Assembly: GCA_903822015.1 (NCBI GenBank)
Contig: CAIJNQ010000172.1
Span: 1 to 42,857, forward strand
Length of the DNA: 42,857 bases
Direction of reading: 5' to 3'
Source: an uncultured Verrucomicrobia subdivision 3 bacterium
Lineage (GTDB): Bacteria; Verrucomicrobiota; Verrucomicrobiia; Limisphaerales; UBA11358
A model generated the notes under the pieces. That model had not been told where the DNA came from. It ran no database searches and was given only the letters and a program-made list of their open reading frames with translations. The position numbers and the translations under genes are program-made. Positions 16,680 to 42,265 of this stretch are shown here, in pieces (the stretch's first letter is position 1; every line of letters begins with the position of its first letter).

Positions 16680-18212
16680 ATGAGCCAAAGCAATCCGAGC
16701 GCGCCTGGGCGTTTCAAAAAATTTCTTCTGAAATTTCATGTGATGGGTAGCGCGCCACGCGAACTATGGATTATTTACGCGGCTTACATCCTGGAAAATC
16801 TGGCCTACAAGCTCGGCTCGCAAGGTGTGTTACCGCTGTGGCTGTCGTCAGATTTGGGCTATAGCGATGTCAAAGCCGGCGCGATGATAGCGACGTGGTC
16901 GGCGGTGATGACGCTGGTGACGGTGATGGTCGGTTCGCTGGCGGACGCGTTGGGCGTGCGCAAAACTTTCATGCTCGGCTTCTGGGTTTGCCTGATTGCG
17001 CGCAGTGTGATGGCGCTGACAATTTCCCGGTGGGTGGTCCTCCCGTTCGGCCTTTATCTGGATGCGGTGGGCATTGCCCTGCTGATTCCGGTGATGACGG
17101 TGGCGTGCAAGCGATATACCAACGCCGCGCAACGGTCCGTCGCGTTCTCGCTCTATTACGCGCTGATGAACCTGGGCTATGCGATGGGCGACAAAATCTT
17201 TGACCGCCTACGCGGCGCCCACGGTATGGGCGAAATTGGTCATTGGACCCTGCCGGGATTGGGCATCGAGTTGACCACTTATCGGGTTTTAATTTTATTG
17301 GGCGTGGCGTTTACGATTCCCGGGTTGATCACCGTCTGGCTGTTTGTGCGCGAAGGAGTGGAGATGACGGAAACGGGGGTGAAGATCACTCCGCCCAAAG
17401 CGGCGGTAAAATCCGGTGTCAATCCCGTTGTGGTGTTGTGGCGGAGTTGTGGTGAGACTTCGGTTAAGACGGCGGCCATTTTTAAGAGTTTGTGGCAGCG
17501 GCCGGAGTTTTACCGGTTCCTGATCTTCATGACCATGGTGGTGGGGGTGCGGATGATTTTTTATCATCTGGCCTTCACCTTCCCGAAATACGGCATCCGC
17601 GAACTCGGTGCCGGCGCGCCGTTCGCGCATTTGAGCGGCATGCTGAATTCGCTGCTGATCGTGGTGCTGGTGCCGATCTGCGGGGTGCTGACGCAGAAAA
17701 TCGCCGCCTACCGCATGGTGACGATCGGCAGCCTGATTTCGGCGCTCTCGGTCTTTTTCATCGCGCTGCCGCCGGCCTGGTTCCAGACGCTGGCGGACGG
17801 CTGGCTGGGCAATTTCGTCGTGCATGACTGGCTTGAAGTGCCGGGGCCGGTCAACCCGCTTTATATTTCGATGTTCTTTTTTGTGGTGATGCTTTCGGTC
17901 GGGGAAGCCCTGTGGTCGCCGCGCCTGTACGAATATGCCGCCGCCGTCGCGCCGAAAGGCCATGAAGCCTCCTACATGGCGCTGTCGCTGCTGCCGATGT
18001 TCCTCGCCAAATTTGTCGTGGGCGGCATTTCGGGCTGGATGCTTTCCGTTTATTGTCCCGCCACCGGTCCCCGCCACTCGGAAACCATGTGGTTCATCAT
18101 CGGCTGCATGGCCCTGGTCACACCGGTGGGAACCTTTCTGTTCCGCAAGCAAATCCAGGTGCACGAAGAAGGCCGCGACGAGCCGGCGGACCAACAAAAG
18201 ACCGGCGCGTGA
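16680..18212 (+). CDS. MFS transporter (POT/peptide-like), candidate muropeptide or amino-sugar permease
   Basis: About 12 hydrophobic segments, MFS motif A GSLADALGVRK, AFSLYYALMNLG, GEALWSPRLYEY...APKG.EASYM. Substrate inferred from context only. Confidence 0.85.
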   Translation: MSQSNPSAPGRFKKFLLKFHVMGSAPRELWIIYAAYILENLAYKLGSQGVLPLWLSSDLGYSDVKAGAMIATWSAVMTLVTVMVGSLADALGVRKTFMLGFWVCLIARSVMALTISRWVVLPFGLYLDAVGIALLIPVMTVACKRYTNAAQRSVAFSLYYALMNLGYAMGDKIFDRLRGAHGMGEIGHWTLPGLGIELTTYRVLILLGVAFTIPGLITVWLFVREGVEMTETGVKITPPKAAVKSGVNPVVVLWRSCGETSVKTAAIFKSLWQRPEFYRFLIFMTMVVGVRMIFYHLAFTFPKYGIRELGAGAPFAHLSGMLNSLLIVVLVPICGVLTQKIAAYRMVTIGSLISALSVFFIALPPAWFQTLADGWLGNFVVHDWLEVPGPVNPLYISMFFFVVMLSVGEALWSPRLYEYAAAVAPKGHEASYMALSLLPMFLAKFVVGGISGWMLSVYCPATGPRHSETMWFIIGCMALVTPVGTFLFRKQIQVHEEGRDEPADQQKTGA

Positions 18213-18218
18213 CGGAGC

Positions 18219-20009
18219 TCAGGTCGCCGGCGTCCCGGAACTTTGCCGCAACCGTTCCTCCGCCTGCTCGTTGGTCAAATTTTCTTTCACCCGCAACACC
18301 GCCATGCCGACCACCGGCGGATACGCCTGGTCTGCTTTCATGCGCGGCTCGACGTATTCAATGATCTCAAAAAGCAGCGCATTGGCCGTCTCATAATCCA
18401 GGCTCGTCAGCTTTGTGATGTAGCGGGTCGCGCGATCGATCAGTTTCAAATTGCTTGGCACCACCCAGACCATGTAATTGCCCATCACGCGTCCCAACCG
18501 CACCATCGTACAGGTGGAAACGGCGTTCATGACCAGCTTGGCGGCGACACGGCATACGCCGTCGAGCAACAAGTCCGACTCCGGCACGGTCACCAAAACC
18601 GTGAGGCTGGCGGCCGCCGAAAGGGCCGCCGGCAATTCCGTTCCGAAAAAAATCAACCCGGTTTGCGTCCGGCCGGCCCGGGCGGCGTTGAGCTGCTGAA
18701 GTTGAAATTCCCGCGCCGCCGGCTTTTCCTGAGCCGTCAAAACGGCAATCGCACTTTCATGCGGACCGAGCTGGCGATGCCGGACGCCGTGGCGGTCAAT
18801 CTGGTAGCGCATCAATTCACCGGCCTTGATCTTGCCGATGATTTCCAAAGTGCGCTCCACCTTCGCCGGCTCGACCAGGGCGCGGACTTCCGCTTCGCTC
18901 CACTCGACGCAACGGGGCTGACGTTTGAGGATGTTCTGCCAGGCGGTTTCCGTCCGCTCATCGGGCAGAAATAAATACGCCCAGGATTCGGCGGCTGTGG
19001 GGTCGTCAAATTTGCGAAAGGGCGGCGTGCAATACGTCGGCGAACGCTCGGTGGTATCCGTCAACACATCGATGCCCAGCCGGTCCGCAAAATAATTGTT
19101 CCGGTGTCCGCCGCGATAAACTGATTCCTCCAGGGCGACAATTTTCGCCAGCGCCGCCAGCAGGGCCGGCGAGCGCAGGTTTTTGAACAGTTCCTCCATC
19201 CTGGCGAGAAAGTGGGCCGTGGTTTCCGCTGACTTTTTCCCGGAGAGTTCCCGGGCGACGATTTCCAAAATGGCCAGCATCACGCACAGTTGAATCGAAG
19301 TCGCCTGCATCCGGGTCGAACCGGTGATGCTCATCGGCCCGGTCGTGAGGTTGATTTTCTCGATCCGCGCGTCCGTAATGACTTCCCGGCTGCGCTGGAC
19401 GTGTTCGCACAAGATGTCGTCGGGATTATTATAGACGAAATAAACTTTCGCGCCGACGTCGACCCCGGCCCAGGCCGTGCCGATGACGAAAGAGGTTTCG
19501 CCGCCTTCCGTGATGGCGAACACCACGTCGCCGGCGCGCACGCCGAGGTCATGCATCTGCTTTTTTCCGAACGCGGTGAAATCCTCGAAGCCTTCCACCG
19601 ATTTGATGAGCGCATAATCGCCGCCCGCCATCACGCTGAAGGTGCGGTTTTCAAAATCCCCGTTGCCGCGCTGCCGCCAGAAATCGCGCCAGAGGGAATC
19701 CAGCAAAATGCTCAGGCGCCCCGTCGAGCCGCAGCCGGTAAAGTAAATTCGTCCGCCGGATTTGACGGCAGCCAGCACGGTGGCTGCGATGGCCTCCGCC
19801 CGGCCGGATGGCGCAAACTCGCGGAACTTTTTCAAGACGTCCTCGTCGGCCTGGAACAGCAGGCCGAGCGCCGCCGCGATGTCGGCTTTCGCCACTTCGC
19901 TCAAATTCGCCGTGACCGGATGCGACGATTCGGTGACGAGCGCGCCGAGCTTGAATTGGCAGCTGATTTTCAAAAAATCCTGCGACCGGGCCTGCGAACG
20001 AGAACTCAT
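18219..20009 (-). CDS. Double-SIS MurQ (MurNAc-6-P etherase)/glucokinase-regulatory-protein-like protein
   Basis: LVTESSHP, GGRIYFTGCGSTGRL, MAGGDYAL..SVEGFED, GPMSITGSTRMQA, DTTERSPTY, KLVMNAVSTCTMVRLGRVMGNYMV..VPSNLKLIDRA. About 596 aa from ATG 20009. Confidence 0.82.
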   Translation of the reverse strand: MSSRSQARSQDFLKISCQFKLGALVTESSHPVTANLSEVAKADIAAALGLLFQADEDVLKKFREFAPSGRAEAIAATVLAAVKSGGRIYFTGCGSTGRLSILLDSLWRDFWRQRGNGDFENRTFSVMAGGDYALIKSVEGFEDFTAFGKKQMHDLGVRAGDVVFAITEGGETSFVIGTAWAGVDVGAKVYFVYNNPDDILCEHVQRSREVITDARIEKINLTTGPMSITGSTRMQATSIQLCVMLAILEIVARELSGKKSAETTAHFLARMEELFKNLRSPALLAALAKIVALEESVYRGGHRNNYFADRLGIDVLTDTTERSPTYCTPPFRKFDDPTAAESWAYLFLPDERTETAWQNILKRQPRCVEWSEAEVRALVEPAKVERTLEIIGKIKAGELMRYQIDRHGVRHRQLGPHESAIAVLTAQEKPAAREFQLQQLNAARAGRTQTGLIFFGTELPAALSAAASLTVLVTVPESDLLLDGVCRVAAKLVMNAVSTCTMVRLGRVMGNYMVWVVPSNLKLIDRATRYITKLTSLDYETANALLFEIIEYVEPRMKADQAYPPVVGMAVLRVKENLTNEQAEERLRQSSGTPAT

Positions 20010-20131: not shown

Positions 20132-21238
20132 ATGACCGAAGCCGAGCCGCTGCAATTCATCGGCGCCAATGCGGTGCGCTGGCGCAGCCGCACGCTCACT
20201 TACTTTTCCGGCTGCGATTATTTCCGGCTCGCGCGCGATGCCCGCCTCGCGGCGGCCGCCCATAAAGCCCTCGCACAGCATGGCTTGAATGTTGCCGCCT
20301 CGCGCCGCACCACCGGCAATCACAAGATTTACACGCAGCTGGAGGCGGAACTGGCGAAATTTTTCGGCGCAGAAACCGCGCTGGTTTTGCCGGACGGCTA
20401 CCTGGCGCCGCTGGCGGCGGCACAGGCCCTGGCGGAAGAATACACGCAGGCTTTGATCGACGAATACGCCCGTGGCGCGCTGGTGGACGCGGCGCGGATG
20501 CTTGGCTGCCCGGTGAAACGATTCCGGCATCGCGATGCGGCGGATCTGCAAAAACACCTCGCCCGAAGCAAGCGCGGGGCGCGGACCATGGTTTTAACGG
20601 ACGGCATGTTTTCGCATGACGGCTCGGTGGCGCCGCTGGGTGATTATCTTAAAGTCCTGCCGGCAAATGGAATAATGCTCGTGGACGACGCGCACGGAGC
20701 CGGCGTTTTGGGCGCGACCGGCAAGGGGTCGCTGGAATATGCGGGCGTCGGCCGGAAACAAATCATCCAGTGCGCAACGATGAGCAAGGCGTTTGGGGTT
20801 TACGGCGGCGTGGTGCTGACATCGCGCGGACTGCGAGCAAAAATCCTGGCCGGTGGTCGTTCGTTCATTGGCACGACCCCGTTGCCGCCGCCGCTGGCCG
20901 GCGCGGCACTGGCCGCGCTGAAAATTCTGCGCAGCGAACCGGCACGGCGAAAACGGCTGCTCCGGAATACGGCTTTGGTGCGGACAAAACTACTGACGGC
21001 TGGTTGGGAAATTACCGAAACGCCGGGGCCGATCATCCGGCTGCCGGCGATGAGCGGCCGGGAAGAAGGCGAGTTGAAAGGGCGGTTGCTGGCGGCGGAA
21101 ATTTATCCGCCGTTTCTAAAATATCCCGGCGCATCGGCGCAGGGCGTGTTCCGGTTCGTCATTGCCAGCGAGCATTCGCCAGCGCAACTTAGCCAGCTGA
21201 TTGCGGTGCTGACGGCGTTCAAAGTGCGGCGGGGTTAG
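20132..21238 (+). CDS. PLP-dependent alpha-oxoamine synthase family protein (BioF/Kbl-like)
   Basis: FSGCDYFRL, AASRRTTGNH, TDGMFSHDG, VDDAHG.G.LG, TMSKAFG (PLP lysine). Confidence 0.85.
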   Translation: MTEAEPLQFIGANAVRWRSRTLTYFSGCDYFRLARDARLAAAAHKALAQHGLNVAASRRTTGNHKIYTQLEAELAKFFGAETALVLPDGYLAPLAAAQALAEEYTQALIDEYARGALVDAARMLGCPVKRFRHRDAADLQKHLARSKRGARTMVLTDGMFSHDGSVAPLGDYLKVLPANGIMLVDDAHGAGVLGATGKGSLEYAGVGRKQIIQCATMSKAFGVYGGVVLTSRGLRAKILAGGRSFIGTTPLPPPLAGAALAALKILRSEPARRKRLLRNTALVRTKLLTAGWEITETPGPIIRLPAMSGREEGELKGRLLAAEIYPPFLKYPGASAQGVFRFVIASEHSPAQLSQLIAVLTAFKVRRG

Positions 21239-21276: not shown

Positions 21277-21400
21277 TGGGCCGCGATGGCAAAGCGGGAG
21301 CCATGACACCGCTTTCGAGCGGGCGAAGATGTTCGAAGGGAGATCAACCCAAGCGAGCGGGCGAAAGCGGCGTGGCGCTTCACTTCCCGCCGCAGTCCAT
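21277..21400. repeat. REP/MITE-like inverted-arm element
   Basis: Left arm tgggccgcg...gacaccgcttt and right arm aaagcggcgtggcgcttcacttcccgccgcagtcca. Positions 21308-21400 are closely similar to 25563-25655. Confidence 0.8.
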
Positions 21401-21579
21401 AAGGCGCTCTGGCAAACCGACCCCAAGACTATTTTTCCGGCTGCATTTTTTCTTACCCCGCATAGTTTCCTGGGCCAGTGATTTCTACCATAATAATTCC
21501 GCCAGAATCCGCACTGTTTTCGACGTAAATTCCAGGACGAATTACTTGGATTTACATAGGTTATTTGCTACGCATGAGA

Positions 21580-22809
21580 CTAGAGGCGCAGGAAAATTTT
21601 CCGCTGGTAAAGGAAGCGGGCGAACCAGAGGAACAGGGCCACGGCGGTCGCGGCGATGACGAGATCGCCGAAGCCGGAGGTAACGTGCGTGTCCAAAAAA
21701 CTTTTCACCGGTCCGCCGGCGAGCCGCCGGGCGAGTTTCTCGAAGCCGAGCCCGCCGAGGAAATTGCTGGTGAGATAAATCGTCAGAGGATTCATGCCAA
21801 TCCACACGAACGGCTGACACCAGGCCCGCCATTTTCGGACGTCCACAATCCAGTAAAACGCGCCGAGCAGCAGCGCGCTGAAGCCGCCGGCGACGAGGAC
21901 GTAGGAGGAGGTCCAGATCTTTTTGATCACGGGAAATTCCAAGCCCCACAAAAAGCCGAGCGCCACACCCGCCGCACCACTACCGAGCAACCACCACACT
22001 TTTTTTTCGTCCGATACGGATGGGTTGCGGAGGAGCAGGCCGGCGAAAATTCCCAGCAGGCCGGTGACGACGGCGGGCAGCGTGCTTAAAATGCCTTCAG
22101 GGTCGTAGGTGCCGTCGTATTTACGGCCGGGCAGATATTTTTGATCCAGATAATTTGGCAGCGTCACGCCCTGCACATAGGAGCCGTGAATCATATTTGT
22201 GCCGGCCCAATTCAACTGCGAAATATTCGTAAAACCGGCCTCCTTGGTAATGATCGCGTCGCCGCCGGGCACCGGCCGCACGTCGGGAAACGGGACCCAC
22301 GCCAGCAGCGCCCAATAACCGAGCAGAATCGCGGCGGCGACGGCAGCCAGCCCCCGGGTCCGGACGAAAATAAACAGCAGCCCGCCGAACGTGTAGCAGA
22401 GCGCGATGCGGTTCAGCACGCCCAGCAACCGCATGTCCGGCCACGGATTCGTGAAGCCGCCGGAATAAATCAGGCCGATAATGAACAGCAGGATGCCGCG
22501 CTGGAGCACGCGTTTCACGGCGGCGGCACGGCCTTCGCGCTCGATGATTTTAGTCAGCGAAAATACGGTCGAGACGCCCATCATGAAAACGAAGTGCGGA
22601 AAGATCAGGTCGTAGAAATGGAAACCCTGCCATTCGGCGTGGTCGAGTTGCGTCGCGAGGAATTCCGTTGCAGCGTTCTGGCTGGTCTCGTGAAGGGCGT
22701 AGACGAACGAGTCGGCCCCGAGAATCCAGAACATATCGAAGCCGCGCAAGGCGTCGAGCGACATCAGGCGCTGCGGTCCGGACGCGGGAATGGTGGTTTG
22801 GGTGGCCAT
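21580..22809 (-). CDS. Heparan-alpha-glucosaminide N-acetyltransferase-like membrane protein (HGSNAT/DUF5009/NagX-like)
   Basis: RLMSLDALRGFDMFWI, QLDHAEWQGFHFYDLIFP.F.FMMGVS, GVLNRIAL, DPEGILST, PVIKKIWTSSYVL, IGMNPL.IY. Confidence 0.9.
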   Translation of the reverse strand: MATQTTIPASGPQRLMSLDALRGFDMFWILGADSFVYALHETSQNAATEFLATQLDHAEWQGFHFYDLIFPHFVFMMGVSTVFSLTKIIEREGRAAAVKRVLQRGILLFIIGLIYSGGFTNPWPDMRLLGVLNRIALCYTFGGLLFIFVRTRGLAAVAAAILLGYWALLAWVPFPDVRPVPGGDAIITKEAGFTNISQLNWAGTNMIHGSYVQGVTLPNYLDQKYLPGRKYDGTYDPEGILSTLPAVVTGLLGIFAGLLLRNPSVSDEKKVWWLLGSGAAGVALGFLWGLEFPVIKKIWTSSYVLVAGGFSALLLGAFYWIVDVRKWRAWCQPFVWIGMNPLTIYLTSNFLGGLGFEKLARRLAGGPVKSFLDTHVTSGFGDLVIAATAVALFLWFARFLYQRKIFLRL

Positions 22810-24351: not shown

Positions 24352-24360
24352 TACCCGAAT

Positions 24361-25317: not shown

Positions 25318-25375
25318 AATTATTTAGAGCAGTTTAAGTAACCCATGGCCGCAAGTTCCGGGAACCGCGGCGTTT

Positions 25376-25420
25376 CCCCTCATCCTGACCTTCTCCCGCG
25401 GAGAGAAGAGTCAACCGCTG
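25376..25420. repeat. Partial arm of a CCCTCATCCTGACCTTCTCCC-type palindromic repeat
   Basis: cccctcatcctgaccttctcccgcggagagaagag contains a cttctc/gagaag hairpin and resembles a widespread REP-like intergenic family. No partner arm seen. Confidence 0.5.
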
Positions 25421-25562
25421 GCTGGGCTTCGGAGATGCGATTGATTTGCGCGCAGAATGCCATCGCGGTTTCGCTCAAGCCGGGAAACATTTCATCCGCT
25501 TACAGCGGGAACGGGCTGGGTGGTGACCGGGCTGCCTTCCGGCATGTGGATTTGAACGCGAT

Positions 25563-25655
25563 ACCGGTTTCGAGCGGGCGAAAATGTTCGAAAGGAAACC
25601 AACCCTTGTTTGCGTGCGAAAGCGGCGTGGCGCTTCGCTTCCCGCCGCAGTCCAT
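25563..25655. repeat. Second copy of the REP/MITE-like element (left arm missing)
   Basis: accggtttcgagcgggcgaaaatgttcgaaagg...gcgaaagcggcgtggcgcttcgcttcccgccgcagtccat aligns to 21308-21400. Confidence 0.8.
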
Positions 25656-25907
25656 GATGCGCTCCGTATACCAACCCTCCTGGATTTTTCAGCGGCTACA
25701 GTTTTACATGGAGCATTTCAATCAATCCATTAGCAATGAGCTGAGGGTGCTGACGGAATGCGATCTTTTTGGCTCTTGGCTTCGTTTCGGCTCAATGACA
25801 GGGTGTTCAAACCTGCCTTCGCCAAAGCCTGGCCAAAATACAAAAAATCCTCGTGGCCCATCGCTATGGCGGTTTCAGACAACATTGGCGCGGACGTCTG
25901 ACGCCGG

Positions 25908-26061
25908 AAAAGCGGCGGAGGGCCGCCGCACTCCACGACGCTGGCGCGTTTGCCAACGGGCATCGGATTGCGCAAAGCGATTTGGAGGGCGCGACGGCGC
26001 TTTGGGACGACGCGACATTTCGCGTCGGGGGGGAAAGCGGCGACATGTCGCCGCAGTCCAT
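25908..26061. repeat. Cluster of related REP-like arms
   Basis: aaagcggcggagggccgccgcactcca (25908), tttggagggcgcgacggcgcttt (25981) and aaagcggcgacatgtcgccgcagtcca (26034) share an AAAGCGGC..hairpin..GCA(C/G)TCCA frame. Confidence 0.7.
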
Positions 26062-26121
26062 ACTAGTGCACTGCTCCTGGCAAAGAATCTCTGCGTTCTT
26101 TGCGGTTAAATGATTGGGTCC

Positions 26122-28476: not shown

Positions 28477-28480
28477 GGGG

Positions 28481-29575
28481 TTAATTGGCGGCCAACGGCA
28501 AGCCGTGCGCCCCGGCCACGGCGGGATGGGTCACCCGGCCGTTTTTGACATTAATGCCGCCAACCAGCGCGGGATATTTCTGGCACGCTTCCTCGACGCC
28601 GAAGTCCGCGAGCATCTCGAGATAGCGATAGGTGACGTTGGTCAGCGCCTGCGTGGCGGTGCGCGCATAGGCGCCGGGCATATTGGCCACGCAATAGTGC
28701 GTCACGCCTTCCTCGACATAAACGGGATCGTGATGGGTGGTGGCGCGCGACGTTTCGGCGCAGCCGCCCTGGTCAATCGCAATGTCCACCAGCACGCTGC
28801 CGGGCCGCATCCGGCGCAGCATGGCGCGGGAAATCAGTTTCGGCGCCTTGGCGCCCGGCACCAGCACGGCACCGATGAGCAAATCCACCGCCGGCAGCAA
28901 ATCCAGGAGGTGCGATTCGCTGGAAAACAAGGTGTGCGCCGTGTGGAGCGTGATGTCGAGAAAACGCATCCGCTCGAGGTCCACTTCGAGGATGGTCACG
29001 TCCGCGCCGAGGCCCTGCGCCATGCGCGCCGCATTGACGCCCGCCGCGCCGCCGCCGAGCACGACGACTTTGCCGGGGAGCACGCCGGGCACGCCGCCGA
29101 GCAAGGTGCCGCTGCCGCCGAAATGTTTCGCCAGAAAATAGCCGCCCACCAGCACGCTCATGCGCCCGGCGATTTCGCTCATCGGCTCGAGCAGCGGCAG
29201 CCGGCGGTTGACCTCGATGGTTTCATACGCGATGCAGGTCGCGCCGGATTTCATCAAGGCATCGGTGAGCGGTTTGCTGGCGGCGAGGTGCAGGTAGGTG
29301 AAAAGGATTTGTCCGGGCCGGAGCAAAGGCAGTTCAGCTGGCAGCGGCTCCTTGACCTTGATAATCAAATCGGCCTCCGCAAAAACCGCGGCATGCGCGT
29401 CCACGAGCCTGGCGCCGGCCGCTGCATATTCCGCGTCCGGATAGCCCGCGCCAATGCCCGCGCCGCGCTCGACGACCACCTGATGGCCGCGCTTGATGAG
29501 CTGATACACGCCGCCGGGCAGCAGGGCGACGCGGTATTCCTGCTCCTTGATTTCTTTGGGGACGCCGATAGTCAT
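28481..29575 (-). CDS. ald: Alanine dehydrogenase
   Basis: [78 protein letters not shown]. Confidence 0.97.
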
Positions 29576-29746
29576 GGCCGTTTTGCGTTGGACCGCTGGC
29601 GCAACCTAACAAAGTTCAAAGCGGAGTCAACGACCCGCCGGCTGGCCGAGGGGGACCCGTTTTGGGGGTGGCATTATTCGATGACTCCCACCAGAATCGT
29701 TTCGTCAGCCAGCCCGCGGATGCTGGTATCGCAACTGAAGCCAAAC

Positions 29747-32101: not shown

Positions 32102-33420
32102 ATGCGCCCCGATTTTGGGTTGTGCTTTTCGCCGCGCTGTTGGCCGGCTGTCAATCTATGCCCATTAAACATCCCACCACCCGACCGCCGGTGAAGCTCG
32201 GGGTCGAAGTCCTGTTTGAGAAACATCTCGACCTGATTCGCGGCAAGCGCGTCGGTCTGATCACCAACCCGACCGGCCTGGACAGCCGGCTCGACAGCAT
32301 CATTGACCGCTTTCGCGCGGAACCGGAGGTGAAGCTGGCGGCGCTTTACGGCCCGGAACACGGTGTGCGCGGCAATGCGCAGGCCGGTGAATATGTGCCG
32401 TTTTATTTTGACGAGCAGCTCAAGCTGCCGGTGTTTAGCCTCTACGGTCAGACGCACAAGCCGCCGGCGGACATGATGACGAACCTTGACGAATACATGC
32501 GGACCTTTGACACGAAGCACGAGGGCAAGCAGGTCGAAGCCGGCATGATGCAGTCGGTGGATGTGATGGTGTTCGATCTGCAGGATGTCGGCACGCGGGT
32601 TTACACCTACATTGCCACAATGGCCTACGCGATGCAGGCCGCGGCGGAGGCGGATATTCCGTTCATCGTCCTGGACCGGCCCAATCCGGTCAACGGCGTC
32701 GCGATGGAGGGGCCGATTCTGGAGTATCCCCAATACAGTTCATTCATCGGGCTTTATCCGATCCCGCTGCGGCACGGCATGACGGCGGGAGAATTGGCGC
32801 AACTGTTCAACGAAAGATTTGTCGCGGCGGACGGACACCATAAAAAATGTAAACTCACCGTCGTACCCATGGAAAACTGGACCCGCGGGGAGTGGTTCGA
32901 TGAAACGTCGCTGCCGTGGGTGCTGCCATCGCCGAACCTGCCGACGCCCGAGAGCGCGACGGTTTATCCCGGGCAAGTGATCCTGGAAGGCAGCAATCTA
33001 TCGGAAGGGCGCGGGACGACGAAGCCGTTTGAAATGTTCGGCGCCCCGTGGATTGACGGTTTCGTGCTGGCGAAGCAATTGAACGATTTGAACCTCCCGG
33101 GCGTGAAGTTTCGCGAAGTCTGGTTTACGCCGACTTTCTCGAAATTTGCCGGCCAGCAATGCGGCGGCTGCCAGTTGCACGTCACGGATCGAGACGCCTA
33201 CCGGCCGGTCGCCACGACACTGGCCATCCTGTCAGTGGTGAAGCGAATTTATGGCGGCAAACTGGAACTGCACGCGAGCTATTTTGACAAGGTTTTGGGC
33301 ACGTCATCCGTCCGGGAGGCGCTGGAGCGGGGCGAACCGGTGGATAAAATCGTGGCCGGCTTCAAGTCCGGCCTCACTGAATTCGCCAGGCAGCGCGAGC
33401 CTTACCTGCTTTATCGCTGA
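32098..33420 (+). CDS. namZ: Exo-beta-N-acetylmuramidase NamZ (DUF1343/GH171), lipoprotein
   Basis: LLAGC lipobox, GKRVGLITNPTG, YGPEHG.RG, SLYG, FDLQDVGTR.YTYI, VLDRPNP, RHGMT.GELA, PSPNLP, SEGRGT..PF. ATGA overlap with dacB. Confidence 0.93.
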   Translation: MNAPRFWVVLFAALLAGCQSMPIKHPTTRPPVKLGVEVLFEKHLDLIRGKRVGLITNPTGLDSRLDSIIDRFRAEPEVKLAALYGPEHGVRGNAQAGEYVPFYFDEQLKLPVFSLYGQTHKPPADMMTNLDEYMRTFDTKHEGKQVEAGMMQSVDVMVFDLQDVGTRVYTYIATMAYAMQAAAEADIPFIVLDRPNPVNGVAMEGPILEYPQYSSFIGLYPIPLRHGMTAGELAQLFNERFVAADGHHKKCKLTVVPMENWTRGEWFDETSLPWVLPSPNLPTPESATVYPGQVILEGSNLSEGRGTTKPFEMFGAPWIDGFVLAKQLNDLNLPGVKFREVWFTPTFSKFAGQQCGGCQLHVTDRDAYRPVATTLAILSVVKRIYGGKLELHASYFDKVLGTSSVREALERGEPVDKIVAGFKSGLTEFARQREPYLLYR

Positions 33421-33429
33421 CCTCATTTT

Positions 33430-34617
33430 ATGCGCGCAAAATGTCTGATTGCTTTCGGGGTGATCTGGTTTTGTGCCGTGGCGGCGGGTTTCACCCAAGA
33501 ATTCCGCGCGGACAAACTGGCGGCGATGGATGCGGCGATCCGGGAAGCGATCACCAACCACCAATGTCCCGGCGGCGTGCTGTGGCTGGAACATCGCGGC
33601 GCGGCGTATCACAAGGCCTTTGGGGACCGCGCCCTGGTGCCGGTGCGCGAGCCGATGACCGAGGACACGATTTTTGACGCGGCTTCGCTGACGAAAGTCG
33701 TCGCGACCACGCCGGCGGTGATGCTGCTGGTGGAGCGCGGTCAGGTGAAGCTGGACGCGCCGGTGCAGGCCTACCTTCCCGAGTTCACGGGCGAGGGCAA
33801 GGAGGCGGTCACCGTTCGCGAGCTGCTCACGCACACGTCCGGCCTGCCGCCGGACATCGAAACGAAAACCGACTGGCACGGCCAGGCCGAGGCGATCAAA
33901 AAGGCGTGCGCCGTGAAATTGCAATCCCCGCCCGGAACCAAATTCAAATACAGCGACATCAACTTTTTCCTGCTCGGGGAGATCGTCCAGCGCATGAGCC
34001 GGGAGCCGCTGGAAATCTTCGTCCAGCGCGAGATTTTCGAGCCATTAAAAATGACCGACACCGGTTTCCTGCCGCCGACCAACAAGCTGGGCCGCATCGC
34101 GCCGACGGAAGTGGTGGACGGCCAGCCGTGGCGCGGCGTGGTGCATGATCCGACCGCGCGGAAGATGGGCGGCGTGGCCGGGCACGCCGGACTATTCACC
34201 ACGGCCGCGGACCTGGCGCGCTACGCCCGAATGCTGTTGAATCTGGGCGAACTTGACGGCGTGCGGCTATTCCAGCCGGCAACGGTGCGGATGATGACCA
34301 GCGTGCAGACGCCGCCGGGAATGGCCGCCCGGCGCGGCTTCGGCTGGGACATCGACACCGCATTCAGCGGGCCGCGCGGCGATATTTTTCCGGAGGGCTC
34401 GTATGGTCACACCGGCTGGACCGGCGGCTCGTTGTGGATTGATCCGTTCTCCCAAACCCTGGTGATCTTTTTGTCGAACCGGAATCATCCGACGGAGGCG
34501 GGCAGCGTGACGGCTTTGCGGCACGAATTGGGGACGCTCGCGGCGGAGGCGCTGAAAAAGATTGATTTTACCAGGGCGGCGAGCACATTCATGAGCACGG
34601 GCAGCGACGGAAAATAA
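33430..34617 (+). CDS. Secreted serine hydrolase, beta-lactamase class C/AmiE(YbbE)-like
   Basis: FDAASLTK (SxxK), LLTHTSGL, YSDINF, G.VHDP.AR.MGGVAGHAGLF, YGHTGWTG. Adjacent to namZ, as amiE is in Bacillus. Confidence 0.85.
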   Translation: MRAKCLIAFGVIWFCAVAAGFTQEFRADKLAAMDAAIREAITNHQCPGGVLWLEHRGAAYHKAFGDRALVPVREPMTEDTIFDAASLTKVVATTPAVMLLVERGQVKLDAPVQAYLPEFTGEGKEAVTVRELLTHTSGLPPDIETKTDWHGQAEAIKKACAVKLQSPPGTKFKYSDINFFLLGEIVQRMSREPLEIFVQREIFEPLKMTDTGFLPPTNKLGRIAPTEVVDGQPWRGVVHDPTARKMGGVAGHAGLFTTAADLARYARMLLNLGELDGVRLFQPATVRMMTSVQTPPGMAARRGFGWDIDTAFSGPRGDIFPEGSYGHTGWTGGSLWIDPFSQTLVIFLSNRNHPTEAGSVTALRHELGTLAAEALKKIDFTRAASTFMSTGSDGK

Positions 34618-34667
34618 TCAGGGCGGCAAATTCCGAACATTGAGCGGGCCGGGATGCAAATCGCCAC

Positions 34668-34696
34668 ATCCCCCCAAAACAGGGGGGGATTTTTTC
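34668..34696 (+). terminator. Probable intrinsic terminator of the dacB-namZ-hydrolase operon
   Basis: atcccccc stem, short A-rich loop, ggggggat, then a T run, about 50 nt after the stop. Confidence 0.6.
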
Positions 34697-34846
34697 CTTG
34701 AACTGCCCGCCTCTAAGTGAATAATCAAAACTAACTGCTGAAGAAAGAAATTCAGTTGATCGAGTGGAATGTTGTGGAAGATTGAAGAGGAAGTGCGGCA
34801 GTGCGGTGAAAAAATCGTAGTAAAATCCAAACCAAAAGGAATCAAG

Positions 34847-38004: not shown

Positions 38005-38871
38005 ATGAAAGCGCAACAAGAGAGGCGGTTGCCCGGTGACAAGCGAGAAGGTTTCACCCTGATTGAATTACTGGTGGTCATCGCCATCATTGCCATTCTG
38101 GCGGCGATGCTGCTGCCCGCCTTGGCCGCCGCCAAAAGGAAGGCGTACTCCATTCAATGTGTTAGCAACATGAAACAGCTCCAATTGGGCGGGGTGATGT
38201 ATGCCAGTGAAAACAACGATTTCATGATGCCGAATTCTCCGTCCACGACATCCGGCTTAAGCTGGGTTGGCAACCAAAGTGTACAACACTGGAATGCCGC
38301 CGATTCCAATACCAATGCATCACTTTATCTGACCAATCTTATGGCGGGGTACATGACCGGCCAGTTGGGCGTTTATCATTGTCCGGCTGACAGAATTCCC
38401 TCGGCCAACGGACAGCGAATACGCAGCTACTCCATGCAAGGCCAAGTTGGTTGCAGTGGCCCCGTTTATATGAATCAGAATAATGCTAAATTCTATCTGA
38501 AGACTTCGGATGCGATCGGATTTCCAGGACCATCTGATCTAATTGTTTTTCTCGAAGAAAGCGGGGGTAGTTTGGGAAATGCCGGAATGGACGGCTGGTT
38601 GCAGGTTAACAATGCCTATGGTGCCACCCCTGGGGCATATACCGGTTCGGCTACTTTTCCCGACGTGCCTGGTGCTTACCACCTCTGGGGTTGTGGAATG
38701 TCCTTTGTTGACGGCCACTCGGAAATTCACAAATGGGTGACCAGCGCCCTTCAAATACCAGTAAATTATGGGCTTGCCGTGCAGAATGTTGCCGCCGGTG
38801 GGCTTCCACCCTCGCCAAAGGTCAATGCTGACTGGCAGTGGTTCACCTCCCATTGCGCGGCCCATAATTAG
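38005..38871 (+). CDS. Prepilin-type N-terminal cleavage/methylation protein with H-X9-DG motif (DUF1559-like)
   Basis: [51 protein letters not shown]. Confidence 0.92.
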
Positions 38872-38907
38872 TCAGATACCGGCGACTGCCAAAGGCCGTG
38901 ACGAAAT

Positions 38908-39780
38908 ATGCAGGAAGAAAAAGAGCGCACGTCAAATTGGAAAAGCAGCGCCTTTACCTTGATTGAACTGCTGGTGGTGATCGCTATTATTGCCATCTTG
39001 GCGGCCCTGCTGCTGCCGGCATTATCCCAGGCCAAGGAGCGGGCCAAGCGCATCGGTTGCCTTAACAATGAGAAACAGATGGGGCTAGGCAGCCAGATGT
39101 TCGCTGACGACGACGCCAACCACGCCTTCACGGGCACGTTGAATTACGCCGACGACGATATGAACTGGCTTTACTGGTCCTATGTGCCTGCCACCAAAGC
39201 CTTCTATTGTCCCTCCACGGTGAATTTCGTCCGCACGAACACGGCACCCATTGATCCTGCCATTTGGGAGGCACCCACCTCACCTTTTCTAACACTGGGG
39301 AACCAGACGACCGTGTCCACTTATGCCGAACGCATTCATGGCGGCACGGTTTATATGACGGATTTGTTGACCAATGCCGGGGGAAAGCTTCAACCATTCG
39401 GAAGCAGCTATGAAGTTTCAGGCTTTTTTAATAGTTATACCACCAGCGGAAACAATTACAAAAACATACGAAAGACCCAGAACTCGTGCTCGCGCTACAT
39501 CACCACGATCACCGAAAAGCCCTACGTCACAGCTGGCCAGGCAGTCGGTCCTTCGGATATCCTGATTATTTACGACGCAGACGACGTCGGGCATCTGGCA
39601 AACGGCAGTGTGGATCCAAGCCGCAAAAACGACAACTATCCCGATCCGGGAGACAACCATGGAGCAGCGGGGGTCAATTTTGTATTTTGCGATGGTCACG
39701 CACAGTGGATCCCGCAGAAAAATTACATGCGCGACTTCATTCTCGGCACGGACGAATATCACCTGCCCATCGCTCCCTGA
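38908..39780 (+). CDS. Prepilin-type N-terminal cleavage/methylation protein, H-X9-DG-like
   Basis: [54 protein letters not shown] (10-residue spacer). Confidence 0.92.
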
Positions 39781-39831
39781 GGAGGGTGGTCCGGTTTTTC
39801 CCTTTCAAAAACCAAAAAACTTTCGATTGAA

Positions 39832-40884
39832 TCAACGCGGACTCACTTGGAGTCCGCGTTTTTCTTTGGCGGTGGCGAATGAGAGGATGCCTTTTTCCGC
39901 CGTCACGCCGGCATAGGGGTCGTTGGTGATAAGCAGATTCCCATCAATGTCGAGGTAGTCGGCCAGTTCCGCCAGGTGCGCGGCGGCGCTGATCAGCACG
40001 CTGGTTTCGATCATGCAGCCGATCATCGTTTTCAAGCCGGCCCGGCGTGCGGCGCGCAACGTCTCAAAGGCCATGCTCACGCCGCCGGTCTTAACCAGCT
40101 TCACATTCACTCCGTGGAAGCATTCCGCGCGGCGGGGGATGTCCTTGACCGTGTGGCAGGATTCGTCGGCAAAAATCGCCAATGGCGAGCGGGTCTTGAG
40201 CCAGATCAGATCCCGGTCGGCGGTATCGCGCGGCATCGGCTGCTCGATGAACTGGATTTTTCTATCCGTGGCCACGAGCCACTCGATCATCCGCAGGGCT
40301 TCCTCCTTGGTCTTCCAGCCCTCGTTCGCGTCCACGCGCACCGGCTTGCCCGGGGCGACGGAACGGAGCGCGGCGAAATTTTCACGATCACGCGGGTCGC
40401 CGACCTTGAGCTTGATCACCGGATATGGGTCGGCGTCCAAAACCTTTTTGCGGATGATGTCCGGCGCATCAATGCCGATGCTGAAGGACGTGACGTGATG
40501 GTGCTCGCGGAAACCCAAGCCCAGAAAATCGTGGAGCGGCTGGCCGGCGCGCCTGGCCGCGCCGTCGCACAGCGCAAGGTTCAGCGCACATTTGGCGGCG
40601 AACGGGATGCCCGGGATCGCCTCAAGCCGGGCCATGGCCCCGGGCACATCGGCAAACGACAAATGGGCCGCGTCGAGCTGTTGCAGAAACTGGAGGACGC
40701 CATCAGCGGATTCGCCATACAAACTGGACGGCGCGGCCTCGCCGAGGGCTGGCACGCCGTCGGCGTCGGTCAGTTCCACAATGACGGTGTGGTGGATGCC
40801 GGAGCCCCGGGAGCTGGCGATTTTCCAAGGGTTAGCGAGGTGCAACTCACAGGTGCGGGCGGTCAATTTCACCCTTAAATTCAA
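39832..40884 (-). CDS. Dipeptide epimerase (L-Ala-D/L-Glu epimerase, enolase superfamily)
   Basis: GEAAP, SFSIGID, IKLKVG (KxK), VDANEGW, IEQP, ADES, VNVKL.K.GG, MIGCMIE, DIDG (DxD). TTG start. Confidence 0.92.
   Translation of the reverse strand: MNLRVKLTARTCELHLANPWKIASSRGSGIHHTVIVELTDADGVPALGEAAPSSLYGESADGVLQFLQQLDAAHLSFADVPGAMARLEAIPGIPFAAKCALNLALCDGAARRAGQPLHDFLGLGFREHHHVTSFSIGIDAPDIIRKKVLDADPYPVIKLKVGDPRDRENFAALRSVAPGKPVRVDANEGWKTKEEALRMIEWLVATDRKIQFIEQPMPRDTADRDLIWLKTRSPLAIFADESCHTVKDIPRRAECFHGVNVKLVKTGGVSMAFETLRAARRAGLKTMIGCMIETSVLISAAAHLAELADYLDIDGNLLITNDPYAGVTAEKGILSFATAKEKRGLQVSPR
39834..39867 (+). terminator. Intrinsic terminator for the prepilin genes, inside the 3' end of the convergent epimerase gene
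   Basis: aacgcggactc-acttg-gagtccgcgtt, a perfect 11-bp stem, followed by tttcttt. Confidence 0.65.
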
Positions 40885-41107
40885 ACAGTTTCCCCACCGT
40901 TTGCAATCGGATTGGCTTCAAGGATGCCACCCTAAAATTGGCTATATCATCCTAAAATGCGAGGTTCAACCACGGAGGGGCAAGGAGTACGAAAACAGAA
41001 GTCAGGAGTCAGAATTCACCGCTGACGACAGAGAGGAAATCAGGAGGCTCACGCAAAGACGCAAAGGCGCCAATTCACCGGGAAAGTGAAGCCGATGGGG
41101 ATCGATA

Positions 41108-42265
41108 TCACCAGTGGCCGTAAAGGTTTTTTGGGATTTTTGCGTTATCCGGGAAGACAAGATAAATGGCGTTATGCGATTTCGTCCATGAATGGATGAC
41201 ATTGGCTCGCTGGTAAATGTGCCGGACCGACTGCCCGAGAGCGAGATTGGTGGCCGGGTCGTTGATGACCACATCCCCCGCTGGCGTGAAGCCGATGCAG
41301 ACGATCAGATGACCGTCCGTGTCCGGCGGCCGCCCCGGCTGGAGCCAGTCCCAGCGTCCGGAAAGAACCACCGGGATGCCCGCGACAATCCAGTCTTCCA
41401 CTTCCGAAAGGTCGTCGAGCCGCGTGACGAAGCTTCGCATGCCGGGGAAACTGCCGGCGAACGCCGTGTTGAACGGCCAGTTGCCCGTGCCGGCAAAATC
41501 GTCGTCATAAACATTGGCCGCGACTTCCGGCACGGTCAGATTCATTTCCGGCCGGTGCAAAACATCCGCCCAGCGCGACAGGACCATCGAGAGGGAGGTC
41601 GGGCTGCACCAGCCCTTTTCGTTCGGGTAGCCATGCTGCGAATGTTCCGGCGTGGAAATGATTTTGCCCCAGGCCGCGCGGTTCGGCGGCCGAGTGGCGG
41701 GGGGAACCCGGGTGTTGGAGAAGGATGCCCCGAGGAATTTCAGCGTCGGCCGCACGCCGTTGGTGCCGCCCAGCGTCACACGAATCCGGGCCGCGCCGGC
41801 GGGCTGCGTCAAAATCAAAGTGTCCGTGTCCACGGTGCCGTCGGCATCCTGCTGGTGGCGGACACTGGCGCGCGGGAAGGTTTTGTTGTCGGGCGACCAG
41901 TCGCCCAGCGTGTAAAATTTTGTGGCGTGGTCCGGCAAAATGGCGCAGGCCTCGATTTTCAGGAAGGTACCGGCGGGGGCAGCGGCATTCCAGGAGAGAA
42001 TCAATTCATTCCACGGAATGCCCGATTTGATTTCCGGCGAGAGCAGGACAGTTTCGCCGTTTTCAGATTGCGAGCGATTGAACTTTGAGAATTGGTTCAG
42101 GCCGACGAAATGGCTGAAGTCGGACCGGGTAGAAGGGGGAGCGGTTTTGCAACCGGCCAGGATAACCGCAGTCAGCAGGAGCAGAAGTGCATGGAACCTC
42201 TTAGAGCGTGTCAGAAAATTACGCGGGGCCCTGTTTTGATGGCACAGACTGGTGGCACAGGCCAT
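41108..42265 (-). CDS. Peptidase C39-like lipoprotein (start uncertain)
   Basis: LLLLLTAVILAGC lipobox, HSQ...WCSPTSLSM (Gln/Cys), GNWPFN.A.A, GHLIVCIGF (His), VINDPA (Asp). Confidence 0.82.
   Translation of the reverse strand: MACATSLCHQNRAPRNFLTRSKRFHALLLLLTAVILAGCKTAPPSTRSDFSHFVGLNQFSKFNRSQSENGETVLLSPEIKSGIPWNELILSWNAAAPAGTFLKIEACAILPDHATKFYTLGDWSPDNKTFPRASVRHQQDADGTVDTDTLILTQPAGAARIRVTLGGTNGVRPTLKFLGASFSNTRVPPATRPPNRAAWGKIISTPEHSQHGYPNEKGWCSPTSLSMVLSRWADVLHRPEMNLTVPEVAANVYDDDFAGTGNWPFNTAFAGSFPGMRSFVTRLDDLSEVEDWIVAGIPVVLSGRWDWLQPGRPPDTDGHLIVCIGFTPAGDVVINDPATNLALGQSVRHIYQRANVIHSWTKSHNAIYLVFPDNAKIPKNLYGHW

Follow-up and report, generated by a model that had tools for sequence, protein, structure and literature searches.

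The window analysed here, the whole 42,857-base contig C172 of the metagenome-assembled genome (MAG) G000, contains a murein cluster of ~26 kb at 16.6-42.3 kb, analysed by Pfam and NCBIfam scans. The cluster is real, conserved, accessory and coherent. We read it, with a probability of about 0.68, as an accessory set of exported proteins for wall deconstruction that is coupled to cytoplasmic catabolism of peptides and sugars and is directed mainly at exogenous wall, most likely the wall of other bacteria. Feeding on foreign wall would be consistent with the accessory distribution of the cluster and with its seven exported proteins. Gene calls rest on the two scans, read against Pfam gathering and NCBIfam equivalog cut-offs. 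Only PBP4 and alanine dehydrogenase exceed an equivalog cut-off. NamZ, S66, S13, GH25, PF00144 and C39_2 exceed the Pfam cut-offs and the remaining genes are family-level matches; matches to the MurQ, BioF, NagX, LdcA, PBP4B and Ala-Glu epimerase or DgcA models lie below the equivalog cut-offs. The murein genes named in an initial annotation of this DNA, and the genes interleaved with them, were all recovered in their places by Pfam and NCBIfam. The members of the cluster are the following (lengths in amino acids, aa):

16677..18212, plus strand: MFS permease, 511 aa, ATG at 16680; Pfam MFS_1, E 3e-19
18219..20009, minus strand: long MurQ-like protein, 596 aa (SIS1, SIS2-like insert, lid); GKRP_SIS_N, 45.4 bits, above the Pfam cut-off
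20132..21238, plus strand: BioF-like alpha-oxoamine synthase paralogue, 368 aa; Aminotran_1_2
21580..22809, minus strand: NagX/TfMurT-family membrane protein, 409 aa, HGSNAT-like; DUF5009-like in Pfam, NagX model NF046061
22951..24351, plus strand: class-A-like serine hydrolase, 466 aa, exported; Beta-lactamase2, 50 bits
24361..25317, plus strand: LdcA LD-carboxypeptidase, 318 aa, no signal peptide; Peptidase_S66 N and C domains
26122..28476, minus strand: GH25 muramidase with Ig-like repeats, 784 aa; Glyco_hydro_25, 97 bits; Ig_3, I-set, Ig_2
28481..29575, minus strand: alanine dehydrogenase (Ald), 364 aa; TIGR00518, 487 bits against a cut-off of 391.85; Pfam AlaDh
29720..32101, plus strand: PBP4/DacB (S13) with a C-terminal alpha/beta-hydrolase domain; Peptidase_S13 (PF02113), 313 bits
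31232-32098, plus strand: alpha/beta-hydrolase (esterase-like) domain of DacB, last 289 residues; from motifs and a fold model
32098..33420, plus strand: NamZ exo-beta-N-acetylmuramidase (GH171), lipoprotein; NamZ_N, NamZ_C, LAGC lipobox
33430..34617, plus strand: AmiE/PBP4B-like protein of beta-lactamase fold; PF00144, 252 bits
34847..37867, plus strand: exported 1000-aa protein with a weak Calx-beta match (22.9 bits, below cut-off)
38005..39780, plus strand: two prepilin-type (N_methyl, DUF1559-like) proteins, 288 and 290 aa; N_methyl above cut-off
39832..40884, minus strand: MR/MLE epimerase/racemase, 350 aa, Ala-Glu epimerase-like; MR_MLE_C, 88.8 bits
41108..42265, minus strand: C39-like cysteine peptidase lipoprotein, 385 aa from ATG 42265; Peptidase_C39_2, LAGC lipobox

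The predicted functions can be arranged into a scheme. Seven products with a signal peptide (GH25, DacB, the class-A-like, AmiE-like and 1000-aa proteins) or a LAGC lipobox (NamZ and the C39-like protein) would act outside the cytoplasm; no export signal was found in LdcA, Ald, the epimerase, the BioF-like or the MurQ-like protein. By family membership, the GH25-Ig lysozyme would cut glycan strands, PBP4/DacB would open DD cross-links, the AmiE-like protein would strip stem peptides off N-acetylmuramic acid (MurNAc), and the NamZ lipoprotein would take off the terminal MurNAc or a disaccharide. The class-A-like protein may be a PBP-A-like DD-peptidase, and the C39-like protein a stem-peptide endopeptidase in the role played elsewhere by NlpC/P60 or MpaA. 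The esterase domain of DacB may clear ester-linked groups so that glycosidases can act, the O-acetyl group of MurNAc being the most likely target. The NagX/TfMurT-type protein could re-N-acetylate de-N-acetylated sugars from cytoplasmic acetyl-CoA or import MurNAc, and the MFS permease could bring in sugars or muropeptides. By family membership, too, cytoplasmic LdcA would convert the tetrapeptide to a tripeptide and cytoplasmic alanine dehydrogenase would deaminate the freed L-Ala; the MR/MLE enzyme may epimerise L-Ala-D-Glu. The GKRP-type MurQ-like protein may turn MurNAc-6-phosphate into N-acetylglucosamine-6-phosphate (GlcNAc-6-phosphate) and D-lactate, with GlcNAc release and amino-sugar catabolism presumably provided from another contig, C72, by a sugar porter, GH20, a ROK-like protein and a PIG-L enzyme.

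Conservation and accessory distribution of the cluster

A NamZ scan of species-representative genomes yielded 80 loci, 25 of them close (NamZ at least 70% identical) and 55 distant. Genes were counted within 10 kb of NamZ or to the contig end, and many loci are cut by contig ends. The closest loci are labelled Verrucomicrobia subdivision 3, Limisphaerales or Verrucomicrobiae. Among the close loci DacB is found in 23 and the AmiE-like gene in 22, followed by the 1000-aa protein (18), the first pilin-like gene (17), GH25 and the epimerase (13 each), Ald (9), LdcA (7), the NagX-like and class-A-like genes (6 each), the BioF-like and C39-like genes (3 each) and MFS (1); the MurQ-like gene is found in none. 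The distant loci contain the AmiE-like gene (19), canonical MurQ (7), the NagX-like gene (5), pilin-like genes (3), the epimerase (2) and DacB (1), and no other members recur. Because the DacB-NamZ-AmiE-like core recurs (23/25 and 22/25) with other members around it, the clustering is not a matter of chance. Local order is also kept: the arrangement GH25-Ald-divergent DacB was found in 9/25 close loci, the 1000-aa protein comes after the AmiE-like protein in 18/25, and the first pilin-like gene comes after the 1000-aa protein in 17/25.

The 70-75 kb around NamZ were then compared in five larger relatives (G041-G045; 4.9-7.0 Mb, one of them a closed chromosome). The MAG that contains the window has 2.85 Mb in 310 contigs and is only 73% complete, so that the lack of a gene there is weak evidence, and for gene absences the relatives count most. 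DacB, NamZ, the AmiE-like and the C39-like genes are present in 5/5, the last one duplicated in two; the epimerase has 60-80% identity in four and 38% in one. The NagX-like gene, LdcA, the 1000-aa protein and the pilin-like genes are present in 4/5, MFS in 3/5, the class-A-like and BioF-like genes in 2/5 each, the MurQ-like gene in 1/5 and Ald in 0/5. Gene order is shuffled among these genomes and the same gene set stays clustered; in the closed 5.9-Mb relative, the order of the window is kept from the BioF-like gene through the epimerase, minus Ald. The initial annotation had singled out the C39-like, HGSNAT-like (here NagX-like), MFS, class-A-like and BioF-like genes as interleaved without an established role in this pathway. 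As the counts show, these genes are kept beside the murein genes, and no complete canonical pathway was found elsewhere in the genomes searched. Additional families inside the clusters of the relatives include a sugar-porter MFS (5/5), GH20 (3/5), Amidase_2 (2/5), a NagB-like protein (2/5), transglutaminase-like and D-amino-acid-aldolase-like proteins and a pair of ROK-like and PIG-L genes.

The accessory pattern was scored in 24 sampled congeners, with a BioF-like orthologue defined by at least 55% identity. LdcA, the BioF-like and the C39-like genes are found in the same 5/24 congeners (G005, G009, G015, G021 and G024). NamZ is present in four of these, the fifth, G009, being a 440-contig assembly, and the class-A-like gene in two; a NagX-like gene of at least 76% identity is found in three congeners, with weaker homologues in six more. 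Since these genes are confined to the same 5/24 congeners, the cluster is accessory. This phyletic pattern speaks for membership in the cluster and not for function, because related genomes are non-independent and linked genes move together. The stretch or part of it is contained in 12 DNA runs from 8 studies of lake water or freshwater metagenomes; 5 of the 12 contain at least half of its words, and the best one may be the source sample.

Wall hydrolases, stem-peptide enzymes and membrane proteins

DacB passes the PBP4 equivalog model (TIGR00666, 251 bits versus a cut-off of 107.8). A long plus-strand open reading frame (ORF) at 28391-32101 (1236 aa) overlaps Ald on the opposite strand; the start of DacB is most likely ATG 29720, because a signal peptide follows it, and the same 793-aa product is present in the protein database. 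The C-terminal domain contains the motifs HFHGW, GHSGG and FDALY and a conserved His, and has no match in Pfam and no sequence match in the PDB. Its model, with a predicted local distance difference test (pLDDT) score of 84.5, finds its best fold matches among feruloyl esterases, pneumococcal EstA, esterase D and acetyl-xylan esterase (E 4e-8 to 1e-6, template modelling score 0.45-0.62). The domain is thus similar to carbohydrate esterases (PDB 1gkl, 2uz0, 3fcx, 6ne9) in its predicted fold and in its GHSGG Ser, Asp and His, but differs from them in its low identity (8-16%), the lack of a Pfam model and the fusion to PBP4. It was found in 214 proteins (length range searched, 436-1388 aa), S13 being carried by 120/120 listed of those, and every full-length DacB of the relatives has it as a fusion. 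When 1.84 billion representatives were searched with a profile, 2,279 clusters were obtained at E <=0.001, mostly of stand-alone proteins of ~300 aa. Among ten members of the esterase family that were scanned, fusions were seen twice, once with a class-A/S11-type DD-peptidase domain and once with a GDSL esterase; six are without any Pfam match and two have sub-threshold matches only (STN, DUF4960). From its fold and fusion partners, the esterase half may strip O-acetyl or another ester from foreign wall.

NamZ_N and NamZ_C score 272.4 and 187.8 bits versus Pfam gathering cut-offs of 26.9 and 25, respectively. The two NamZ enzymes of Tannerella are reported to give different products and cannot be separated by sequence (bioRxiv 10.1101/2021.12.02.470905). 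The AmiE-like protein, which adjoins NamZ in 22/25 close and 19/55 distant loci, has an S-x-x-K motif (S-L-T-K) at residue 86; PBP4B is its nearest named model (153.7 bits versus a cut-off of 385). It is presumed to be a MurNAc-L-Ala amidase. In the class-A-like protein the motifs S-x-x-K, S-D-N and K-T-G are intact and kept in 35 sequences. This protein has no sequence match in the PDB, and its model (pLDDT 66.7) matches the class A beta-lactamases GES, PER and BEL and the DD-peptidase PBP-A at E about 1e-8 in Foldseek. It is not filed here as a beta-lactamase because it scores 30.6 versus 200 with the beta-lactamase equivalog. Its N-terminal region of ~150 aa has no assignment and, since residues 93-167 are modelled at a pLDDT under 50, no fold is claimed for it. 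One database homologue of the class-A-like protein is fused to a PF00756 esterase. The C39-like protein matches PF13529 with 61.5 bits versus a gathering cut-off of 24, and its matches in the ESM Atlas are C39-family clusters or Verrucomicrobial hypothetical proteins only.

Cytoplasmic stem-peptide enzymes are represented by LdcA, Ald and the epimerase. The S66 N and C domains of LdcA score 141.4 and 134.5 bits (E 2e-41 and 4e-39), and the whole protein scores 196.7 bits versus a cut-off of 378 with the muramoyltetrapeptide carboxypeptidase model NF008424. Ald is co-oriented with GH25 and lies directly upstream of it. The epimerase, which abuts LdcA in two relatives, falls below the models for both L-Ala-D/L-Glu epimerase (NF011708, 142.3 versus 343) and the N-acetyl-D-Glu racemase DgcA (206.3 versus 400), the latter score being the higher one; for this predicted enzyme, superfamily membership alone is demonstrated. 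A family of 430-580 aa adjoins the epimerase in three relatives (L137:16979-18358, with homologues in G043 and G044) and has its own copy in the genome of the window on contig C289. It has no Pfam match and no PDB sequence match, and is a candidate for a missing stem-peptide step.

The BioF-like protein scores 262.7 bits with TIGR00858, versus a cut-off of 426.45. A second alpha-oxoamine synthase paralogue (contig C143) is found in 39/41 genomes and matches solved BioF at E 2e-72, compared with 6e-43 for the cluster copy; because this paralogue is near-universal and far more BioF-like, the cluster copy is not the housekeeping BioF. Solved structures do not tell it apart among BioF, Kbl, SPT and ALAS. 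The exported 1000-aa protein shares Ig-like repeats with GH25, to whose residues 354-583 it cross-matches in tblastn, and its neighbours in the ESM Atlas are Verrucomicrobial Calx-beta hypothetical proteins. The pilin-like proteins have GspG-like N-termini and a match to SBP_bac_10 below cut-off, and DUF1559 paralogues of this kind are numerous genome-wide.

The NagX-like protein had been described in the initial annotation as an HGSNAT-like protein without a role in the pathway. This does not hold, since it belongs to the NagX/TfMurT family, for which an amino-sugar role has already been proposed. NagX is proposed by Price et al. (2022, PMC9007349) to be a transmembrane glucosamine N-acetyltransferase, in a family distantly related to the MurNAc transporter TfMurT of Tannerella; in that organism, TfMurT adjoins TfNamZ1 (bioRxiv 10.1101/2021.12.02.470905). 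The protein encoded in the window scores 263.3 bits with NF046061 versus an equivalog cut-off of 480, carries an extra predicted loop of ~35 residues, and conserves the RxxSLDxxRG motif and the His of the L-D-H-A-E-W motif. This His may correspond to the catalytic residue given as His72 of the Shewanella protein and His297 of HGSNAT (PMC9007349). In H-A-x-W-x-G it is invariant in nine full-length sequences, including NamZ-adjacent Bacteroidales ones (reference proteins were outside the alignment), and the tenth aligned sequence, L076, is a 132-aa fragment with H-S at that position. The protein is like NagX and HGSNAT (PMC9007349) in its NCBIfam family and its putative catalytic His motif, but unlike them in its sub-cut-off score, its loop and its context of murein rather than chitin. 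NagX-like genes lie next to NamZ in 6/25 close and 5/55 distant loci, Bacteroidales included. The NamZ-adjacent NagX/TfMurT proteins of other phyla (L060, L064, L068, L086 and L091) likewise keep this His motif, presumably the one that is catalytic in HGSNAT; NamZ-adjacent homologues with it come from Verrucomicrobia, Bacteroidales and MAGs labelled Eubacteriales and Aminicenantes. The kept motif raises the question of whether so-called MurNAc transporters are transmembrane acetyltransferases.

The second membrane protein, the MFS permease, has no match to the AmpG model TIGR00901. Its homologues (46-48% identity) lie within ~15 kb of the cluster in 3/5 relatives, adjoining GH20 in two and a NagB-like gene in one. 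It is a candidate importer of wall sugars or muropeptides.

The GKRP-type MurQ-like protein and the putative amino-sugar route

As called in the initial annotation, a MurQ-like gene is present, but its product is not a plain MurQ. It is 596 aa long, instead of the ~300 aa of single-SIS proteins, and scores 131.7 versus 302 with TIGR00274. Residues 19-237 and 488-546 match solved MurQ, which is the best structure match, and flank an insert of 250 aa. A profile of the family is collinear with human GKRP, positions 25-300 aligning to 41-331 and 497-586 to 491-580 (E 7e-17), and scores higher with MurQ (120.7 bits) than with GKRP (64.4 bits). By these alignments, the predicted architecture is the two-SIS one of GKRP (SIS1-SIS2-lid). 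SIS1 keeps V-E-G-F-E-D (motif V-E-G-x-E-D) and is without S-E-C. In the insert, a conserved T-E-R-S-P-T-Y stretch aligns weakly to S-E-C-P-P-T-F of MurQ (hhalign E 2.8e-4, probability 41%). We take the catalytic glutamates of Escherichia coli MurQ to be Glu83 and Glu114.

The long and the canonical MurQ were never found in one genome, in either of two genome sets (0/41 and 0/5). In 3/8 relatives the long gene divergently adjoins that of a 941-aa FAD/Fe-S D-2-hydroxyacid dehydrogenase of the YdiJ type, which could fit the disposal of D-lactate; the genome of the window has its own YdiJ-type gene on contig C299. Because of the matches to MurQ, the GKRP-collinear profile, the mutual exclusion with the canonical form and the dehydrogenase neighbour, the protein is a probable etherase of the GKRP type. 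GKRP is proposed to have arisen through duplication and unequal fusion of murQ, and etherase activity is reported for GKRPs from outside mammals (bioRxiv 10.64898/2026.05.08.723886). Like GKRP and the Naegleria GKRP-type etherase of the same source (bioRxiv 10.64898/2026.05.08.723886), the predicted protein has SIS1-SIS2-lid, ~600 aa and a SIS1 without S-E-C; unlike GKRP, it is bacterial and nearer to MurQ in sequence, with no glucokinase partner implied. The literature searches, made in main texts, found no description of a bacterial GKRP-type etherase; earlier work on GKRP may mention bacterial long forms. Other families of the same order have ~495-aa fusions of a canonical MurQ with a BadF-type (MurK-like) kinase (L143, L144 and L145; L142:5561-7909), in which the usual S-E-C-P-P-T and V-E-G-A-E-D motifs are present. 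The genomes searched have either the kinase-MurQ fusion or the GKRP-type form of ~600 aa, never both.

The canonical recycling pathway was searched for in the genome of the window and in four or five relatives. AnmK was found in none of 6 genomes (own plus the five of 4.9-7.0 Mb), with two partial sub-threshold matches, which argues for the lack of an anhydro route. NagZ exceeds the cut-off in 0/5; G043 scores highest with 187 bits, in a sequence that has an internal stop, ahead of G041 (57) and the own genome (45). NagA gave nothing above 24 bits (0/5), M14 (MpaA-like) was found neither in the own genome nor in G042, and AmpG-like proteins are represented by sub-cut-off matches only, far from the cluster. 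Canonical MurQ is present in 1/5 (G043), where it adjoins a BadF-type kinase. Mpl exceeds the cut-off in 4/4 relatives and is found in the own genome as two pieces at contig ends. Amidase_2 is absent from the own assembly; in G041 and G044 an Amidase_2 gene lies inside the cluster.

As noted in the initial annotation, AmpG, AmpD, NagZ, AnmK, MurK, NlpC/P60 and M14 are unmatched by the genes called at 16.6-42.3 kb in these scans. Its suggestion that the unassigned genes of the cluster fill such steps fared less well: several of them are filled by genes outside the window, on contig C72 and, in the relatives, by Amidase_2. Contig C72 (6.8 kb; L140, 753-6399) contains a sugar porter, GH20, a 459-aa weakly ROK-like protein and a PIG-L deacetylase in a row. 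In relatives, a module of this type that also includes a NagB-like gene lies beside the murein cluster. NagA, found in none of the five genomes searched, may be replaced by the PIG-L enzyme. The ROK-like protein, which sits in this GH20/PIG-L amino-sugar module and has no NCBIfam name, was considered as the MurNAc kinase, but its distribution does not support this; it is found in 9/24 congeners and does not track the MurQ-like gene (16/24).

Locus boundaries, alternative readings and known systems

The remaining features of the window are the following.

592-16284 (within bases 1-16,284): separate, unrelated glycan-utilisation locus to the left of the murein cluster, with a hybrid sensor kinase (Reg_prop, Y_Y_Y), an OprB porin, a 635-aa protein without a family, GH2, GH3 with a malectin domain, and GH44
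16572..16647, plus strand: tRNA-Met (CAT), left edge of the cluster; Rfam tRNA 72.3 bits, ARAGORN
21305..21409: dispersed intergenic repeat copy, 86% identical to part of 25560-25664; copies on many contigs
25345..26109: repeat-filled spacer (254-aa ORF), no family; blastn pieces of 74-95% identity
34668..34690, plus strand: terminator-like hairpin, 8-pair stem with 6 GC pairs, then a T run

The tRNA-Met is flanked by the MFS gene and, on its other side, by the GH44 gene belonging to the glycan locus, and is the only hit of an Rfam scan of the whole window. On the right, positions 42717-42857 are identical to the first 141 bases of contig C150, and the two contigs probably join. C150 encodes PrmC, a histone-deacetylase-family deacetylase and a 340-aa ORF without a family, all unrelated, so that the C39-like gene is the last one of the cluster. 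Intergenic spacers are filled with short dispersed repeats (~100-320 bases, 74-95% identical), found by blastn on more than 30 other contigs, from which false long ORFs arise. Repeat DNA at 42200-42480 accounts for the extension of the C39-like ORF upstream of ATG 42265. The 254-aa ORF was rejected as a pathway gene: it has no family, lies in repeat DNA and has a homologue in 0/80 related loci; in relatives, LdcA and GH25 abut without it. Spacing is tight in three gene groups, with 9 bases between the class-A-like gene and LdcA, 4 between Ald and GH25 on the minus strand, a 4-base overlap of DacB and NamZ, and 9 bases between NamZ and the AmiE-like gene. The terminator-like hairpin would close the DacB-NamZ-AmiE-like operon.

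Several observations weigh against the reading of the cluster as a catabolic system for exogenous wall. Physical linkage alone could yield the shared phyletic pattern. Ald is missing from the cluster in 5/5 larger relatives, the BioF-like and NagX-like genes are convergent and not co-transcribed, and no RNA runs are listed for 26122-36000. In 7/8 relatives the MurQ-like gene lies apart from the cluster, linkage being seen here and, loosely (11 kb), in one relative and no others, and it is present in 16/24 congeners, most of them without the cluster. No MurNAc kinase was identified in the genomes searched: BadF-type kinases are absent or sub-threshold in G041 and G042, the only such matches in the own genome fall in a 1462-aa frame, and the ROK-like protein of C72 is not supported as one. 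Since NagA was not found, the downstream route would itself be a supposition, through the PIG-L deacetylase. The O-acetyl target of the modelled esterase is a guess. LdcA could serve recycling, because Mpl is present, and by analogy the same NamZ, AmiE and NagZ enzymes would fit self-turnover, as they do for the own wall of Bacillus subtilis.

The last two points lead to the alternative that the cluster salvages the products of the cell's own wall turnover, in the manner of the B. subtilis operon, with LdcA feeding tripeptide to Mpl. NamZ and the AmiE-like protein are the turnover pair of B. subtilis, adjacent also in 19/55 distant loci, LdcA is known classically from recycling, Mpl occurs as well, and an AmpG-like permease lies elsewhere, below cut-off. 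We nevertheless regard this alternative as unlikely. Housekeeping salvage would be expected to be distributed more widely than LdcA, the C39-like and BioF-like genes (5/24) and NamZ (4) are. Soluble fragments need neither an exported endo-lysozyme with Ig repeats nor a large surface protein and pilin-like proteins, the esterase fused to DacB and the possible re-acetylase suggest modified, heterogeneous substrates, and Ald and the epimerase indicate catabolism instead of re-use.

An extended version of the reading that we prefer, in which the cluster is a dedicated system for eating necromass with the esterase, NagX-type repair and GKRP-type etherase mechanisms all in place, is doubtful as a whole. 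In it, the Pfam-less alpha/beta-hydrolase family would strip O-linked modifications from foreign peptidoglycan; the NagX/TfMurT-type protein would restore, across the membrane, wall sugars that had lost their N-acetyl group, drawing on cytoplasmic acetyl-CoA, for which the BioF-like protein may be a Kbl-like partner yielding acetyl-CoA; and the etherase would be a GKRP-type fusion with its catalytic glutamates split between the halves, replacing the MurK-MurQ fusion of sister lineages and representing a bacterial source of eukaryotic GKRP.

It is very unlikely that the exported lysozyme, DD-endopeptidase, amidase and peptidase serve mainly to lyse competitors or prey, with catabolism secondary. 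GH25 lysozymes do serve as antibacterial effectors in other systems, and the seven exported wall hydrolases or binding proteins and the patchy, accessory distribution of the locus would suit such a weapon. The general Pfam and NCBIfam scans, however, revealed no immunity gene, secretion-system effector marker or toxin-like partner, and four members, the exo-acting NamZ, LdcA, Ald and the epimerase, have a nutritional rather than a lytic character. Two of the exported proteins are lipoproteins, which would remain on the producer, and the outer membrane of a Gram-negative target would shield its wall. Finally, a loose neighbourhood assembled by chance or by hitch-hiking on a mobile island, in which the BioF-like, MFS, MurQ-like and pilin-like genes are unrelated to murein, would accord with the tRNA-Met at the left edge, the repeats between genes, the unlinked MurQ-like gene of 7/8 relatives, the convergent BioF-like gene and the abundance of DUF1559 genes, but is most improbable given that the same families co-locate despite shuffled order, that no integrase or transposase turned up in the general scans of the window, that the NagX-like/NamZ adjacency recurs in other phyla and that the phyletic patterns of LdcA, the BioF-like and the C39-like genes are identical.

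The literature searches, which covered main texts, found no paper describing this Verrucomicrobial cluster. The closest precedents are the murQ-murR-murP-amiE-nagZ-namZ operon of B. subtilis, described for the utilisation of MurNAc and wall fragments (PMC8054146; bioRxiv 10.1101/2021.12.02.470905), and the NamZ1-MurT-MurK-MurQ-AmpG salvage cluster described for Tannerella forsythia (PMC5790795; bioRxiv 10.1101/2021.12.02.470905). With the former, the cluster shares the adjacent, exported NamZ and AmiE-like proteins, an etherase-type gene nearby and a hydrolytic, non-anhydro route. It differs in having no MurP of the phosphotransferase system (PTS), MurR regulator or GH3 NagZ, in having GH20 elsewhere or, in relatives, inside the cluster, and in the 596-aa GKRP type of its etherase, and goes beyond the operon with the endo-lysozyme, PBP4-esterase fusion, class-A-like and C39-like proteins, LdcA, epimerase, Ald, NagX-like and BioF-like proteins. 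As in Tannerella, NamZ adjoins a NagX/TfMurT-family membrane protein, exogenous wall is the presumed source and a PTS is lacking. Unlike in Tannerella, a search of the cluster and its surroundings gave no MurK-type kinase, there is no AmpG inside the cluster and the organism is not known as a MurNAc auxotroph; the LdcA-epimerase-Ald branch and the exported peptidases are additional. Muropeptide recycling in E. coli employs AmpG, NagZ, AmpD, LdcA, AnmK, MurQ, NagA, Mpl, MpaA and YcjG. LdcA, an MR/MLE epimerase, a MurQ homologue and, elsewhere in the genome, Mpl are held in common with it, whereas AnmK, NagA, NagZ and M14 MpaA were not found in the genomes searched and AmpG-like matches are below cut-off; breakdown would, moreover, begin outside the cytoplasm with hydrolases and not with the products of lytic transglycosylases. 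The cluster is a variant of the Bacillus- and Tannerella-type systems with several candidate enzyme types.

Peptidoglycan is a large, nitrogen-rich share of bacterial necromass in lakes, soils and oceans, and its consumers and their enzymes are poorly known beyond Bacillus, Tannerella and enterobacterial recycling. Being conserved yet optional among abundant freshwater Verrucomicrobia, the locus would serve as a genetic marker of populations that degrade wall. Candidate enzymes are provided by the PBP4-esterase fusion, the class-A-like protein with its new N-terminal region, the C39-like lipoprotein, the NagX/TfMurT-type protein and the BioF-like paralogue. The lineage appears to be without NagA and AnmK, which points to an amino-sugar route unlike that of textbooks, and the probable GKRP-type etherase bears on the origin of the vertebrate glucokinase regulator from MurQ.

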